The notes under the pieces were generated by a model, which did not search any database, had not been told where the DNA came from, and saw nothing but the letters and a program-made list of their open reading frames with translations. From positions 493,634 to 557,633 of the forward strand of contig CP060227.1 in the NCBI GenBank assembly GCA_023898525.1: a DNA stretch of 64,000 nt. Reading direction: 5' to 3'. Source of the stretch: Candidatus Nomurabacteria bacterium. Lineage in GTDB: Bacteria; Patescibacteriota; Minisyncoccia; Phycocordibacterales; UBA918. The translations under genes and the position numbers were made by a program. Below, piece by piece: positions 7,920-60,790 of the stretch. How positions within the stretch are numbered: position 1 is the stretch's first letter; each line of letters starts with the position of its first letter.

Positions 7920-8914
7920 CTACCTATTATACCTTGAACTAACTTCCATTCTCAATTTTTTTGTATTACCATGTGAAAGTAATCCAAGATAAGCTTGCAC
8001 AACCTCTTCTTTACCGTCTTTTATCGTTAGCTCACGAAACATTTTTCGTTTTGTCGACGTCCGTAACACACGGTGTCTGGGAAAGTGTACCCAACCCAAG
8101 AAATCAACTCCACTTGCCAGAGTCTCAATTGATATTTTATTTGGATGTAACTGTAGCGCCAATTTCTCTTCGAGAAATTGGCGCAGTCCCAAAAAAGCTC
8201 CACCAAATACTCCTTATCCCGTGACAACACCACAAAATCATCAGCATACCGAATATAATATTTGGCTTTGAGTTCGTGTTTCATAAACTGATCAAACTCA
8301 TTCATGTATACATTCACCAAAAGTTGGCTGGTCAAGTTGCCGAGTGGCAAACCTTTATTTGGCTGAATTTGAAAACTATTAATCACTTGCCCCAGCAACC
8401 AAAGAACGTCTTCATCTCTAATGTGCTTTTGTAAGATATCCAGTAGAATTTTATGATCAATGCTAGCAAAGAACTTTTTGATATCACACTTGAGTACCCA
8501 ACAGGTTTTGGTGTGATTTTTTGAAACTATGACGGAGAAGTTTTTGAAGCGCTGAATAGCTTCATGTGTTCCTTTACCAACTCGACAAGAATACGAATCA
8601 TAGATGAATTTTTTATCAAAGTAGGGATAGAGCTTTCGGTAGATAGCGTGGTGGAGCAAACGGTCACGGACACTCGCTTTGTGAATGTTGCGAGGTTTAG
8701 GGTCAGAGATATTGAATGCTTCATAAGTTCCGTGTTTGTATGTTTTGTTTTTTAAATCTCGGTGTAGATCAAAAATGCTATCCATCAAAGTGTACTGAAA
8801 AACTTGCACATCTTTACGCTTACGCTTTCTGTGCAAAAACTCTTCCCACGCGCCAAGAAGATTATCGAGAGAAATGATATTATGGTAGGTAATGTCAGGC
8901 GCAAACAAAAACAT
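7920..8914 (-). pseudogene. DGR reverse transcriptase, split by a frameshift at a T6 run (plus-strand A6 at 8191-8196)
   Basis: The motifs are FASIDH, LPLGNLTSQLL (DGR-specific GxxxSQ) and IRYADDFVVL (YxDD). The N-terminus has HGTYEAFNISDPKPRNIHKASVRDRLLHHAI. The C-terminal thumb (LHPNKISIETLASGVDFLGWVHFPRH) continues in the -1/+2 frame (track ORF 7920..8192). One extra T would fuse the two ORFs into a ~331-aa RT. Confidence 0.8.
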
Positions 8915-9302
8915 ACCTCAGTCTACCCCCCCCCGCGCGCGACAAATTCAACAACCTAGGTTGATTCCGGTCGTCTTGAAGTTGAAAGATACGTATCGTG
9001 TATGGCAGGAGTACCTTATATCTTTTCCTAAGCAAAACCGCTACACGCTCGGTAACAAGATTGACGACGTATTTTTACTCGCCATTGAGTACTGCTTCTT
9101 AGCTAGTTACGCCAGCAAAGACACAAAGCTGATTCACCTTGAACGCTGTATATCACGGGTCGATTTATTGAAATTGTTGCTTCAACTTGCCTGGGAAATA
9201 CGCGCTCTTGATACCAAGAAATACACGGTACTTGGTGAGCGGCTACAAGAAGTCGGTAGAATGCTTGGTGGCTGGAAGAAAGGCATTGAAAGTAAACGAT
9301 GA
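8892..9302 (+). CDS. avd: DGR accessory variability determinant (Avd), four-helix-bundle / 23S-rRNA-IVS protein family
   Basis: The C-terminus LQEVGRMLGGWKKG closely matches Bordetella phage bAvd IAEVGRILGSWIAR. The central GNKIDDVFLLAIEY..LL helices fit the family. It is divergent from the RT. The ATG at 8892 overlaps the RT start, and an alternative TTG start at 8961 is possible. Confidence 0.7.
   Translation: MSGANKNIPQSTPPRARQIQQPRLIPVVLKLKDTYRVWQEYLISFPKQNRYTLGNKIDDVFLLAIEYCFLASYASKDTKLIHLERCISRVDLLKLLLQLAWEIRALDTKKYTVLGERLQEVGRMLGGWKKGIESKR
8926..8934. repeat. Poly-C(9) tract followed by GCGCGCG in the divergent avd/RT 5' region
   Basis: The only long C/G homopolymer in the window. 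It sits 12 nt from the RT start codon, inside or just upstream of the avd 5' end. Confidence 0.6.
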
Positions 9303-9429
9303 AATGAAATTTATTCGTCCAGCAATTTCTTCTAGAAATGGAAGAAATTGGGACGTAAATTCGCAATATTCGCTTGCGCTCGTTTGCTCATTTAAAAAAC
9401 TCCCCACGTTAAGTGAGGAGAAAATGGTG

Positions 9430-9547
9430 TGTTGCTGTACCACCAACCGATGACGATTGTCGGCATTCCAGACGTTGTCGTTGTCGAAGCGGTTGACGTT
9501 AGCCTTGAGCTTGCCATCATCCACATTGACGTTGGCAACGAACAGAA
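9430..9547 (-). repeat. DGR template repeat (TR), 118 nt
   Basis: It is 102/118 identical to the VR. All 16 mismatches are plus-strand T in the TR (adenine in minus sense) against A/C/G in the VR. Minus-sense translation shows the typical AAC(Asn)-rich template VANVNVDDGKLKANVNRFDNDNVWNADNRHRLVVQQH. Confidence 0.9.
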
Positions 9548-9792
9548 ACGATATGTGAAATGCGCCATCTATACCACCAACCATTGATCATAAGTGAACA
9601 AGGTTTTGTATTTTACGCGGGACCTCAAAGTCCACCAGCGCACTTCACCAACAAACTATTTTTTAAAAGAAACTAACATGTCCACACTTTACGCAACCGT
9701 GATCACGCAAACTCCAAGATATGCTGTCTCACTCACAGACTTCCACAGCCGTAGCCGTAAAATAATATCTGTGGCTTCATAAGTATACAAAA

Positions 9793-9823
9793 GTCCCCTG
9801 AACACGCGAAGTGCCCAAGGGAC
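9793..9823 (-). other. GC-rich imperfect hairpin ~30 nt 3' of the target stop (candidate DGR target-recognition hairpin)
   Basis: GTCCCCTG...CAAGGGAC with one mismatch. Its position relative to the VR end is analogous to the BPP-1 hairpin/cruciform. Confidence 0.3.
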
Positions 9824-9850
9824 AAAGGGTCAAAGACCAAAGTGCAGAGG

Positions 9851-10438
9851 TCAAACAGTCTGTTGCTGAACCACCAACCGACGACGATCGTCGGCATTCC
9901 AGACGTTGCCGTCGTCGAAGCGGAAGACGCGAGCCTTGAGCAGGCCAACATCCACAAGGACGCGGGCAACGAACAGAACTCCGTTCACCTCAAACAAGAA
10001 GAACGTACCGTAGCCACCTTGCCGGAGTGAGTCGCGATGATTGCGACAGAACTCTACAATCTGCCCTTGCGACAGCGCAAGCTGGCGTGGATCGCCGAGC
10101 GACTCGAACAGCGTTTCGTATGTGCCGTTGCGAGTCATCTCGTGGACATCGACCGTGACCTCGTTCGTGTCTTCGCCGGAAACATCAGTACTCCAGTTCT
10201 TGAAGTCACTGTCGAGGTAGCCAGTGAAGACATCCTCAGCTTCTGCGAGCGTGACACTGCCCTGAGTAGGGGCGAGGGTGACGGTTTTGAGGCGACGAAG
10301 GTATTCACGCTTCTCTTCCAGAATCTGCTGCAAAACATCGGCAACAGATTCGGCGTCGCGCACTCCGTCAACCACCATCATGTTGATTTTTGTCTGCAAT
10401 TTAAACAGACGCTCAATCGTTTTGGTGTCATTACTCAT
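9851..10438 (-). CDS. DGR target protein (195 aa) with C-terminal variable region
   Basis: The ORF ends with the VR. It has no signal peptide and is unusually small for a DGR target. Its fold is not assignable from sequence here. Confidence 0.75.
   Translation of the reverse strand: MSNDTKTIERLFKLQTKINMMVVDGVRDAESVADVLQQILEEKREYLRRLKTVTLAPTQGSVTLAEAEDVFTGYLDSDFKNWSTDVSGEDTNEVTVDVHEMTRNGTYETLFESLGDPRQLALSQGQIVEFCRNHRDSLRQGGYGTFFLFEVNGVLFVARVLVDVGLLKARVFRFDDGNVWNADDRRRLVVQQQTV
9861..9978 (-). repeat. DGR variable repeat (VR) at the 3' end of the target gene
   Basis: See the TR entry. It encodes the C-terminal VARVLVDVGLLKARVFRFDDGNVWNADDRRRLVVQQQ of the target. Confidence 0.9.
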
Positions 10439-10622
10439 GACATTCTCCTTTCAATAAACCATTACTCATGGTCTGCCAGAGGGCCTAACTACCTTATGTA
10501 GGTTTACCATAGCTTGAAATCAACAAACTTTTGCTGACTTGAAGCTACGGTAAAAAATAAAGAACAATTTGTTAATTATAACATGGTTAACGTTTTTAGT
10601 CAAAATTACGTCCCTGAATTCT

Positions 10623-11642
10623 CACCCTAATTGCACAATCCTTTGCACCCTAATTGCACAGGTCAAGATGACATACATACTGCTTTTGTATGTCACACAA
10701 ACAAATAGGACCGGAAGACTGGCCGGTTATTTCACGTATGCTCAAAGCGGGATACTCAGGAGTGGAGATTGCGCACATTATCAACAAAGATCCAAGTGCG
10801 GTTAATAGACATATTAAAGCGTATGGTGGTCGGGATAGATACGATGCTCGCGAGGTTCGCAGAAAGAAAAAACAGGCACGTATCATTGCTATGGAAGGTA
10901 CTAGAATACTCAAAGGAGTATTATTACGAGAAGTGAAACGATTATTAAAACAACACTACTCACCGGAACAGATAGTCGGAGTACGTGATGACATCTCTGC
11001 GAGCACTATCTACCGATACATTAACGAACGAGCTCCACACCTTAAACAATTTCTTCGTTCTCAGAAAGGCAAGTATCGGCGCAAACGAGGCACCAAAATA
11101 CGTGAAAAAGTTCGTGAAAGAGCCAAGAAACGTCGTATTGATGAACGACCGCCCATTATTGAACGTCGCTCCCGTTTGGGAGATTGGGAGGGAGATACTA
11201 TGCTGGGAAGAGACAAACGAGTACGTATTGTCACCTTCGTTGATCGCAGAAGCGGGTATCTAATTGCGTATCTTCTGCCAAAATTAAATGCTACTTTACT
11301 CACTAAACTGGCGGTGGAAAAATTCAGGCGTATACCCAAAAACAAACGAAAGACCGCTACCTTTGATAACGGTACCGAGTTCAGTGACTGGGAACGGTTT
11401 GAGAAACAAACGAGTATGACTGTGTACTTTGCTTATCCATACCACTCTTGGGAGCGTGGTACCAATGAAAATACTAACGGGCTACTTCGACAATATTTTC
11501 CGAAAGACTTGGATTTCAACACCATTACTCCACAAGAACTTTCTGAAGCGGTTCGTCGTATAAATCATCGTCCTAGAAAGAGACATAATTTCAAGTCTCC
11601 ACATCAGATATTTTGGAAGTGATGGTCTGTGCAATTAGGGTG
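10623..11642 (+). mobile_element. IS30-family insertion sequence (~1 kb) with a duplicated left inverted repeat
   Basis: The left ends are CACCCTAATTGCACA at 10623-10637 and again at 10646-10661. The right end TGTGCAATTAGGGTG at 11627-11642 is their reverse complement. It encloses the transposase gene. No clean target-site duplication was found. Confidence 0.75.
10690..11622 (+). CDS. IS30-family DDE transposase (310 aa)
   Basis: An N-terminal HTH and the DWEGDTMLG...FDNGTEF...YFAYPYHSWERGTNENTNGLLRQYFPK...INHRPRK catalytic core, typical of IS30. Confidence 0.85.
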   Translation: MSHKQIGPEDWPVISRMLKAGYSGVEIAHIINKDPSAVNRHIKAYGGRDRYDAREVRRKKKQARIIAMEGTRILKGVLLREVKRLLKQHYSPEQIVGVRDDISASTIYRYINERAPHLKQFLRSQKGKYRRKRGTKIREKVRERAKKRRIDERPPIIERRSRLGDWEGDTMLGRDKRVRIVTFVDRRSGYLIAYLLPKLNATLLTKLAVEKFRRIPKNKRKTATFDNGTEFSDWERFEKQTSMTVYFAYPYHSWERGTNENTNGLLRQYFPKDLDFNTITPQELSEAVRRINHRPRKRHNFKSPHQIFWK

Positions 11643-11700
11643 GTGATTCAAGGTTCCGCTAGATTCTAGTCTGAAAAGCAACAACATCTAATTCCAGCAC

Positions 11701-11780
11701 GCTAGTGCTACTAAGCACTAGCTCTGGACACATAAAAAAAGAAGTATAGAAAAATTCTATACTTCTTTTTTTATGTGTCC
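11701..11780. repeat. Two palindromes 3' of tRNA-Leu: GCTAGTGCT-ACTA-AGCACTAGC (11701-11722) and a 26-bp-arm perfect palindrome GGACACATAAAAAAAGAAGTATAGAA-AAA-TTCTATACTTCTTTTTTTATGTGTCC (11726-11780)
   Basis: The right arm of the long palindrome overlaps the tRNA-Leu 3' acceptor strand. So a downstream inverted copy of the tRNA 3' end encloses an A/T-rich hairpin. Confidence 0.7.
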
Positions 11781-11859
11781 AGGACTGGAGTTGAACCAGC
11801 ACGGGGAAACCCCCACTACCCCCTCAAGGTAGCGCGTCTACCAATTTCGCCACCTGGAC
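11776..11859 (-). tRNA. tRNA-Leu (anticodon GAG), class II with long variable arm
   Basis: Reverse complement: GTCCAGG acceptor, anticodon stem CTACC/GGTAG with loop TTGAGGG, variable arm TGGGGGTTTCCCCGT, T loop TTCAACT, discriminator A. No CCA is encoded. Confidence 0.75.
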
Positions 11860-31924: not shown

Positions 31925-32140
31925 AATAGCCCTATTTGAGCTATTATGTCCGTTACAACCAAATACGGTAGACCTAACCCATTGGCAACCCCAATGGTAT
32001 GGTCGAAAATCCCAAAGCACATAAAGAACCCGTCATCAGGGCTCGTGCTTTGGGTTATAGGGGGAAACTCCTATAGGAGCTTCGGCTCTCCTGGTGGCGG
32101 GCTTTTTGTACCTCACCAATTTATAAACCCAAAGCACAAT
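31925..32140 (+). ncRNA. Conserved ~200-nt noncoding element, copy A (candidate structured RNA / regulatory leader)
   Basis: It shares TATTTGAGCTATTATGTYCGTTACAA and ACCTAACCC with 60600-60790. It has co-varying stems CCCAAAGCAC/GTGCTTTGGG (copy A) against CCGTCCAAAGT/ACTTTGGACGG (copy B), and ends ...GGGCTTTTTG. Confidence 0.45.
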
Positions 32141-60599: not shown

Positions 60600-60790
60600 C
60601 GTAGTAGCTATATTTGAGCTATTATGTTCGTTACAAACCCGACCTAACCCGCAGGCATTCGCAGGCGGTATGGTCATCAAATACCGTCCAAAGTAAAAAA
60701 CTCCTAATCAGAGCTACTTTGGACGGTCATATCGGGAAACTGGTATGGGCATTGCCTTACGGGGCGTGTCGGCCTGGTTAGGAGCTTTTT
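60600..60790 (+). ncRNA. Conserved ~200-nt noncoding element, copy B
   Basis: See copy A at 31925-32140. Confidence 0.45.

Follow-up and report, generated by a model that had tools for sequence, protein, structure and literature searches.

Relation to Known Diversity-Generating Retroelements

Two groups of diversity-generating retroelements (DGRs) are closest to the element described here, namely the DGR of Bordetella phage BPP-1, organized as mtd-avd-TR-brt, and the DGRs of the candidate phyla radiation (CPR, Patescibacteria). The element lies at positions 7,920 to 10,438 of a 64,000-nucleotide stretch of a Candidatus Nomurabacteria genome (NCBI GenBank assembly GCA_023898525.1, contig CP060227.1, positions 493,634 to 557,633 of the forward strand), called the window throughout, and comprises a small target gene with a variable repeat (VR), a template repeat (TR), the accessory gene avd and the gene of a reverse transcriptase (RT). 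DGRs are enriched in CPR bacteria and have been catalogued by the hundreds, and one in a CPR genome is expected; their first description in this group is reportedly that of Paul et al. in Nat Microbiol in 2017. In the CPR set of Wu et al. (2018, PMC5758913), "Architecture B3, TR-(avd)-RT" accounts for 90%. Roux et al. (2021, PMC8144416) placed the CPR DGRs in clade 2, with targets free of transmembrane or other recognisable domains, and expected the uncharacterised VR domains of CPR bacteria to be divergent C-type-lectin folds.

The element in the window is a typical member of this known CPR class. It belongs to the same host group, and its cassette reads, on the minus strand, target (with the VR), TR, avd (on the opposite strand) and RT; by coordinates this is the B3 order TR-(avd reversed)-RT, with avd inverted between TR and RT as in the other CPR DGRs. 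Also shared are the small target with a C-terminal VR and neither signal peptide nor known domain, and the chromosomal location: a scan of one genome per species gave 114 encoding loci, 79 of which were fetched (L001-L079), as against four related loci in 2.9 million viral contigs (IMG/VR). What sets the window apart from its CPR counterparts is a frameshift in the RT gene and an IS30 element beside the cassette. With the BPP-1 system it has in common an RT homologous to the phage enzyme (bRT) over its whole length, an Avd protein, adenine-specific differences between the repeats, a VR at the 3' end of the target gene, a hairpin downstream of the VR and a stem-loop shortly past the TR. In contrast to BPP-1, avd is found on the other strand, the host is cellular and not a phage, and the target is not a tail fibre.

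The reading favoured here, and held to be probable, is that of a CPR-type chromosomal DGR whose target was diversified in the past, whose RT frame was recently lost and which is now most likely inactive.

Template and Variable Repeats

The features on which the argument for past diversification is built are the following.

9851 to 10438, minus strand: target gene, 195 aa, with two N-terminal helices and a conserved VR-bearing domain at residues ~47-195
9861 to 9978, minus strand: VR, target codons ~154-193, matching the TR without gaps and with mismatches at adenines only
9430 to 9547, minus strand: TR, with 31 adenines and 19 codons able to vary

A first-pass annotation, made from the sequence of the window, had described the two repeats as 118 nt long with exactly 16 differences, every one at a TR adenine, and realignment followed by tabulation gave the same result. 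TR and VR align without gaps over 118 nt each, and all 16 mismatches fall on a plus-strand T of the TR, that is, on an A of the coding (minus) strand; substitutions outside TR adenines number zero. At these sites the VR carries A six times, C six times and G four times. Since the TR holds 31 coding-sense adenines among its 118 positions, the probability that 16 random differences would all hit them is p~1.3e-11. The identity of the two repeats drops at once beyond the 118 nt on either side, and there is no third copy within the 64-kb window.

The VR makes up the last 40 codons of the target (codons 154-193 of 195), 12 of which are changed in the target frame, with 11 residue replacements and one silent change. 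The first-pass annotation had given the changed TR codons as AAC, which holds for four of them; AAT (hit twice), GAT, AAG, GAC, CAT and GTA are affected as well. With 19 codons able to vary, the TR could specify ~1e17 protein variants. DGR templates usually employ AAC or AAT and thereby avoid the stop-prone AAG; the present TR has AAG at two codons (target-frame codons 166 and 168), from which adenine mutagenesis can yield the stop codon TAG. As to the initiation of mutagenic homing (IMH) site, a conserved hairpin lies further downstream, but the last variable adenine is separated by only 8 identical nt from the point where TR and VR diverge, and neither an IMH in the VR nor a non-identical IMH* at the TR could be delimited.

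The pattern extends to the related loci. When the TR/VR pairs of 44 loci (43 fetched loci and the window) were pooled, with the TR about 430 nt downstream of the VR, 686 of 707 mismatches lay at TR adenines, or, expressed by position, 55% of the TR adenines differed as compared to 0.6% of the other bases. A duplicated gene 3' end that diverged by ordinary mutation would likewise leave two similar copies, and nothing beyond the existence of such copies favours it; 16 of 16 differences at one base type (p~1e-11), a DGR-type RT and an Avd adjoining, and the same adenine pattern in 44 independent loci rule out this origin and leave it next to no probability. The 16 adenine-only differences show past mutagenic rewriting in this lineage. 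Along these lines, both the mutagenic homing signature recognized in the first-pass annotation (adenine-specific divergence, DGR-type RT, Avd, and a VR at the target 3' end) and its conclusion that the VR had diversified in the past stand, the divergence from the TR being that which mutagenic homing predicts.

The Reverse Transcriptase and Its Frameshift

The RT gene and the two homopolymer runs associated with it are located as follows.

8027 to 8914, minus strand: 5' part of the RT gene, residues 1-~247 in frame (fingers and palm, GNLTSQ, YADD), with 48 further codons out of frame before a stop
7920 to 8192, minus strand: 3' part of the RT gene (thumb), shifted by -1 with respect to the 5' part, well conserved and without other lesions
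8191 to 8196, minus strand: frameshift site, T6 in the RT sense (A6 on the plus strand), with one base missing by comparison with relatives
8926 to 8934: C9 homopolymer (G9 when read in RT sense) where the divergent avd and RT genes start, 12 nt ahead of the RT start codon

The encoded protein carries the motifs LPLGNLTSQ and YADD and matches Pfam RVT_1 (E=5.5e-23). Its closest solved relative is the RT of the Bordetella phage DGR (bRT, 8ub7), to which it is homologous over residues 13-313 (E=1.9e-44), and its identity to the RTs of more than 40 loci with adenine-specific TR/VR pairs amounts to 57-68% (55% for one locus). The DGR-type RT proposed earlier on the strength of GNLTSQ is thus borne out by both motif and homology.

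The reading frame, however, is not intact, and the "complete" DGR of the first-pass annotation has to be amended accordingly: the T6 frameshift parts palm and fingers from the thumb, and it recurs in a short-read assembly. The RT consists of two open reading frames (ORFs) in different frames, 8914-8027 (295 aa) and 8192-7920 (90 aa). Three-frame translation places the loss of frame after ...EYLVELF in the 5' ORF, and positions 233-293 of the NCBIfam group II RT/maturase profile match the 3' part. If the two parts are fused with one residue at the junction, the protein aligns without gaps to 16 intact relatives and to bRT residues 12-303, from which it follows that exactly one base is missing. 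A single-frame, full-length RT is present in 33 related loci; an RT that is full-length and yet split occurs in the window alone. As a consequence of the base lost from the T-run, ordinary translation would yield an RT lacking the thumb domain.

In this context it has to be considered whether the frameshift is a sequencing or assembly error in an otherwise intact and ordinary DGR. It does sit in a homopolymer, and the single 1.09-Mb contig suggests a long-read assembly, a type prone to homopolymer errors. On the other hand, a 12.4-kb Logan contig from run SRR12358676, a separate short-read assembly, is 100% identical over 6,789 nt, the T6 run included, and the C9 tract, far more error-prone, is also the same in both assemblies. 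Furthermore, the four other overlapping ORF pairs in the window proved to be separate, complete genes, so that frameshifts are no general feature of the assembly; together with the agreeing Logan contig this rules out poor overall assembly quality as the cause. An error is therefore quite improbable, and the frameshift is very probably real at the DNA level, as judged from the assembled sequences.

A further question is whether the DGR could still be functional, through -1 slippage on the U6/T6 run, through a population switch between T6 and T7, or through another RT acting in trans. A single -1 slip of tRNA-Phe on CUU UUU U would give the conserved junction ELF-L-GLRQF, and the thumb-coding part is free of further lesions. 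The cassette also holds the C9 run at the avd/RT junction, a second homopolymer that is conserved throughout the clade, so that these elements may work in part through slippage control. Against this, the site departs from the canonical X XXY YYZ heptamer, and six bases make a short run for slippage or phase variation to be efficient. The T-run is missing from the 16 intact relatives, whose codons vary at this place; a conserved programmed frameshift is for this reason unlikely, and with 33 loci in a single frame it was rejected as a property of the family. A second RT is not found in the 12.6-kb stretch around the cassette, where the only RT matches are the two halves of the present gene.

Evidence on present activity also comes from the VR, which is identical and uninterrupted in the consensus contigs of two Logan assemblies, that of SRR12358676 and that of SRR32608987; the latter contig (L081, 1.3 kb) spans TR and VR with 100% identity and ends at 9303. 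Heterogeneity in the VR would tend to break an assembly there, and both contigs run through the VR unbroken. An identical, unbroken VR in two assemblies speaks, weakly, against ongoing diversification and against a functional element. Of the two further observations that, besides substitutions outside TR adenines, the first-pass annotation had named as contrary to its proposal, the want of VR heterogeneity is thus weakly in evidence in these two assemblies, while the want of RT homology is contradicted by the match to bRT.

Several points weigh against an inactive element. Consensus contigs mask minority variants, which makes the identical VR weak evidence, and SRR12358676 may be the source run of the metagenome-assembled genome (MAG) itself, in which case the assemblies are perhaps not independent samples. 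The RT is perfectly conserved save for the single frameshift, and therefore either the loss is very recent or -1 slippage on U6, which would restore exactly ...ELF-L-GLRQF..., still expresses the enzyme. Finally, the 1.09-Mb genome could encode a further RT that acts in trans. With these points taken into account, continued function is regarded as rather unlikely. The preferred reading, a DGR that is probably inactive now, follows from the frameshifted RT, found also in the short-read assembly and set against 33 intact loci, and from the VR identical in two assemblies; that the element was disabled only recently follows from the fact that no other defect is visible. In its present state, with one base gone from the RT T-run, the gene would thus give a thumbless RT, and the DGR would be off.

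The Proposed Template RNA

Comparison of the related loci suggests that the TR is transcribed as part of a dedicated non-coding RNA, for which the following elements on the minus strand are relevant.

9793 to 9823, minus strand: hairpin 37 nt past the VR, with a stem of 13 pairs and a T-run (TTTTG) behind it
9782 to 9787, minus strand: TATACT, a -10-like box with TTTTG before it, put forward as promoter for the TR RNA
9548 to 9780, minus strand: putative structured leader of the TR RNA, six helices with covariation support (35-sequence alignment A3, RNAalifold)
9762-9753/9750-9741, minus strand: leader helix H1
9721-9717/9683-9679, minus strand: leader helix H2
9711-9701/9698-9688, minus strand: leader helix H3
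9648-9637/9566-9555, minus strand: leader helix H4
9633-9630/9623-9620, minus strand: leader helix H5
9606-9602/9583-9579, minus strand: leader helix H6
9394 to 9420, minus strand: stem-loop CTCCTCAC-TTAAC-GTGGGGAG followed by U6, beginning 10 nt past the TR, terminator-like

Nearly all related loci have, past the VR, a hairpin with the same outer stem (TCCCT...AGGGA and a T-run). This hairpin likely terminates the target gene and/or corresponds to the inverted repeat that follows the IMH in the Bordetella phage DGR. In 36 of the 44 loci the hairpin is followed by a T-run with GTATAAT or GTATACT, from which the TR downstream is mostly 219-251 nt away, the distance in most loci being about 220-235 nt. 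By its sequence the box at 9782-9787 may be taken as the promoter of the TR RNA.

The helices of the leader are well supported by covariation. In the 45 leader pairs, 95.2% of the cells are paired as compared to 40-48% in slid controls, compensatory changes occur in 35 of the 45, and the observed values were reached by none of 500 shuffles. The minimum-free-energy fold of the window's own sequence holds the same helices (z=-3.3). The span from box to U-tract measures 374-433 nt in 36 loci and stays below 410 nt in all but two. No match to the TR RNA was found in Rfam 15, neither at the gathering threshold nor at E values up to 10 on 9250-9900, and a limited full-text search of the literature returned no paper on the leader or its covariation.

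The stem-loop past the TR is present in 43 of 44 loci and directly followed by UUUU in 42 of these 43; its basal pairs (C-G, U-A, C-G) are nearly invariant, and the inner pairs covary. Handa et al. (bioRxiv 10.1101/2023.10.23.563531) described putative Avd-binding stem-loops of ~9 bp immediately past the TR for 207 of 278 DGRs, and the stem-loop in the window, in the same position, resembles them. By analogy, it is likely the 3' end of the TR RNA and/or an Avd-binding stem-loop.

A candidate cis-priming duplex between the TR 3' end and the leader or U-tract was dropped, as no convincing conserved pairing emerged. Logan calls a gene for a 113-aa ORF over the TR (9243-9584); this ORF exists because the TR duplicates the target's 3' end, and it was set aside as no separate gene. 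The TR stem-loop and the avd stop are ~95 nt apart (9303-9393), a stretch that most relatives lack, their avd ending 10-25 nt past the stem-loop; within it, at about 9324-9351, a perfect hairpin of 10 bp is found, CAATTTCTTC/GAAGAAATTG.

The proposed transcript differs from that of BPP-1 in two respects. It would possess a dedicated structured leader of ~230 nt: with avd inverted, its sequence is ruled out as the upstream part of that RNA, and the leader would replace the avd 3' end of the Bordetella phage RNA. The long 3' spacer with the priming adenosine is not evident in the window, because the TR RNA appears to end at the U-tract right after the stem-loop. By analogy with the phage system, the element would have worked as follows. 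A non-coding RNA of ~385 nt, from roughly 9780 to 9395 on the minus strand, would comprise the ~230-nt leader, the 118-nt TR, and the terminal stem-loop with its U-tract. RT and Avd would copy the TR into cDNA with misincorporation opposite adenines, and the VR, at the 3' end of the gene for the 195-aa target, would be overwritten with this cDNA. In this way as many as 19 codons might be recoded, allowing about 1e17 variants, on the last beta-strands and the loop of a probably C-type-lectin-like domain. The ends of this RNA, its promoter and the roles of the hairpins are inferred, which also tempers the scheme as a whole.

Avd and the Homopolymer Tract

Most DGRs, though not every one, have an Avd protein; in the present element the accessory gene is oriented against the rest of the cassette.

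8958 to 9302, plus strand: avd, on the strand opposite to TR and RT, starting at TTG 8958 or, through C9, at ATG 8892

The orientation of avd was missed in the first-pass annotation, whose recognition of a bAvd-like gene is upheld by a match to Pfam PF22296 bAvd above the cut-off (E=5e-14, 53.1 bits, cut-off 40). The NCBIfam model DivGenRetAVD gives 68 bits (E=7e-19), under its 80-bit cut-off, and the identity to the inverted avd of related cassettes ranges from 39 to 82%.

The C9 run at 8926-8934 is the sole G/C run of at least 7 in the 64-kb window, and with ATG 8892 as the start of avd it would fall within the avd ORF. A run of G8-G12 (RT sense) occupies the avd/RT junction in 36 of the 38 analysed loci with both genes, the window included, and within 776 kb of related loci, 36 of 39 runs of at least 8 sit at this junction (for instance at 7311 in L039 and 7349 in L022, among loci L004-L072). 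On the avd strand, each locus has one ATG 4-49 nt upstream of the tract with its frame open into the tract, and the avd frame itself runs through the tract as Pro-Pro-Pro. Relative to the avd frame, the upstream ATG is in frame in 11 loci (including the window, ATG 8892), displaced by +1 base in 19 and by -1 base in 6, and is thus out of frame in 25 of 36 assemblies. In many loci a GTG or TTG stands just past the tract, so that Avd may start downstream, which would put the tract in the avd leader or the RT promoter region. In nine loci (L018, L022, L026, L033, L034, L046, L062, L068, L070) neither ATG, GTG nor TTG occurs between the homopolymer and the conserved Avd N-terminus; avd there starts upstream of the tract or at a rare start codon.

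Phase-variable homopolymers in promoters and 5' coding regions are familiar from poly-C in the Bordetella fim promoters and poly-G in Neisseria genes. The avd/RT tract is like them in being a locally unique G/C run between divergent starts or in the 5' end of a gene, and its length varies among relatives (8-12). It differs from them in that this variation is known between relatives and not within a population. A scan of JGI metagenomes with the C-tract region of the window, made in search of length variants, gave 0 matches; the related locus pairs that were compared for changes in the tract were 81-87% identical where they aligned, three being unalignable and none near-identical. Literature searches found no report linking DGRs to such homopolymer tracts.

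The conservation of an otherwise unique homopolymer between divergent mutator genes suggests control by slippage or phase variation, and a structural signal in RNA or DNA is an equally possible role for the tract. A broader proposal, put forward tentatively and with more doubt than confidence, is that the DGRs of this CPR clade are stochastic switches, in which the avd/RT homopolymer renders hypermutation phase-variable or slippage-dependent and the template is carried on a dedicated structured RNA of ~385 nt. On that proposal, the T-run frameshift in the RT of the window may represent a second 'off' state and not decay.

The Target Protein

Upstream of the target gene, a site with a promoter-like sequence is found.

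10575 to 10603, minus strand: promoter-like site of the target, TTGACT-17-TATAAT with TG before the -10; an 11/12 match to consensus only

The target protein is identical to a hypothetical protein encoded on the 1.09-Mb contig of a Candidatus Nomurabacteria MAG, which makes the host a Patescibacteria/CPR bacterium. A word-indexed search returned 81 homologues of the target, and a profile search 2,606 clusters at 50% identity (E<=1e-3), 950 of them at E<=1e-30. The target had been called unusually small in the first-pass annotation, a view that cannot be kept, 195 aa being typical for a very large CPR family of about 195-230 aa. Some proteins contain the target domain in tandem, in two or three copies (P0082, 476 aa; P0083, 560 aa; P0084; P0086; P0093; P0127).

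Scans of Pfam and NCBIfam and a profile search of PDB sequences assigned the target to no family, and a Pfam scan of 73 members of the target family found none for any of them; by inspection, the sequence has neither signal peptide nor membrane segment. The family alignment shows an invariant scaffold, FVA.V...G.L...V.RF...VW.A..R.R.VV.QQ, that alternates with hypervariable columns, and the set of columns above about 2.8 bits of entropy coincides exactly with the set that has an adenine-containing TR codon in the window.

A structure prediction for the target, which the first-pass annotation had called for, was obtained with AlphaFold2 and a 73-sequence alignment. The model is confident (mean predicted local distance difference test, pLDDT, of 91; predicted template modelling score, pTM, of 0.80), with the two N-terminal helices less so. 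The modelled domain follows the order beta-alpha-alpha-beta-beta-beta-beta, and the variable residues fall on strands 154-163 and 166-173 and on the loop after them. The comparison at hand is with the variable proteins of C-type-lectin fold known from DGRs (Mtd, TvpA, and the archaeal and Thermus variable proteins). Judged from the model, the target domain is probably a very divergent, minimal version of such a fold. A fold of this kind would accord with the expectation of Roux et al. (2021). A Foldseek search of the model against PDB and BFVD gave nothing significant.

The target gene also stands out in composition. Its GC content is 54% compared to 42% for the flanks, and its GC at third codon positions (GC3) is 0.64 compared to 0.33-0.50 for neighbouring genes. 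The target exceeds its flanks in 73 of 73 related loci, by 11 points on average, and since the GC3 of the family outside the VR is 0.59 as against 0.37 for the RT, the excess includes synonymous sites.

Related Loci and Cassette Decay

The 79 fetched loci are mostly annotated as from MAGs of Patescibacteria/CPR; many are titled 'uncultured Candidatus Saccharibacteria' and five Gammaproteobacteria. The order target, TR, (avd reversed), RT is kept in more than 40 loci, and avd is inverted between TR and RT in every locus where it was found, about 50 in all. Among 80 loci, no neighbouring genes recur beyond the parts of the cassette, so that there is no functional partner gene.

Incomplete cassettes are frequent among the relatives. 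Eight loci have only a partial RT match, which in some is nearly full length, two retain a TR but no RT (L003, L071), and 22 targets are orphans with neither TR nor RT within 6 kb (L001, L002, L005, L007 and 18 others). L001, whose target is such an orphan, is the closest relative among the fetched genome loci (73% identity). Decay of the cassette, or targeting in trans, is common in the family. The loci with RT fragments include L016, L024, L050, L059 and L069, and the TR/VR pair of L050 shows a single mismatch and few adenines.

Genomic Surroundings

Outside the DGR, one mobile element adjoins the cassette.

10612 to 11653, plus strand: IS30-family insertion sequence (NCBIfam transpos_IS30, E=2e-71)

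The element has 26-nt terminal inverted repeats (10612-10637 and 11628-11653), occurs as a single copy in the window and lies 9 nt upstream of the promoter-like -35 box of the target. The Logan contigs of both runs stop at 10639, the IS30 edge. The flanks of the region hold housekeeping genes of ordinary kind and a tRNA-Leu (11775-11859, minus strand). An inverted repeat (11724-11782), perfect over 28 nt and with a loop of 3 nt, abuts the 3' end of this tRNA-Leu, and two copies of the LOOT RNA motif (Rfam RF03000) occur further along the plus strand, at 31971-32089 (80 bits) and 60641-60756 (71 bits).

Implications for the Family

The locus serves as an entry point to its clade, in that it ties to DGR targeting a very large domain family, of 2,606 clusters at 50% identity, for which Pfam has no model. 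The model of the target lends weak support to the published expectation that the uncharacterised VR domains of CPR bacteria are divergent C-type-lectin folds. Comparison of the loci defines a likely full template RNA, consisting of promoter-like box, covarying six-helix leader, TR and terminal stem-loop, and the avd/RT homopolymer could explain stochastic control of a mutator retroelement in the cell. The frameshifted RT and the many orphan targets indicate that cassettes are often lost, which matters wherever the presence of a DGR is used as a proxy for its activity. Within the family, attention is best given to the RNA leader and the homopolymer tract, both of which are clade-wide.

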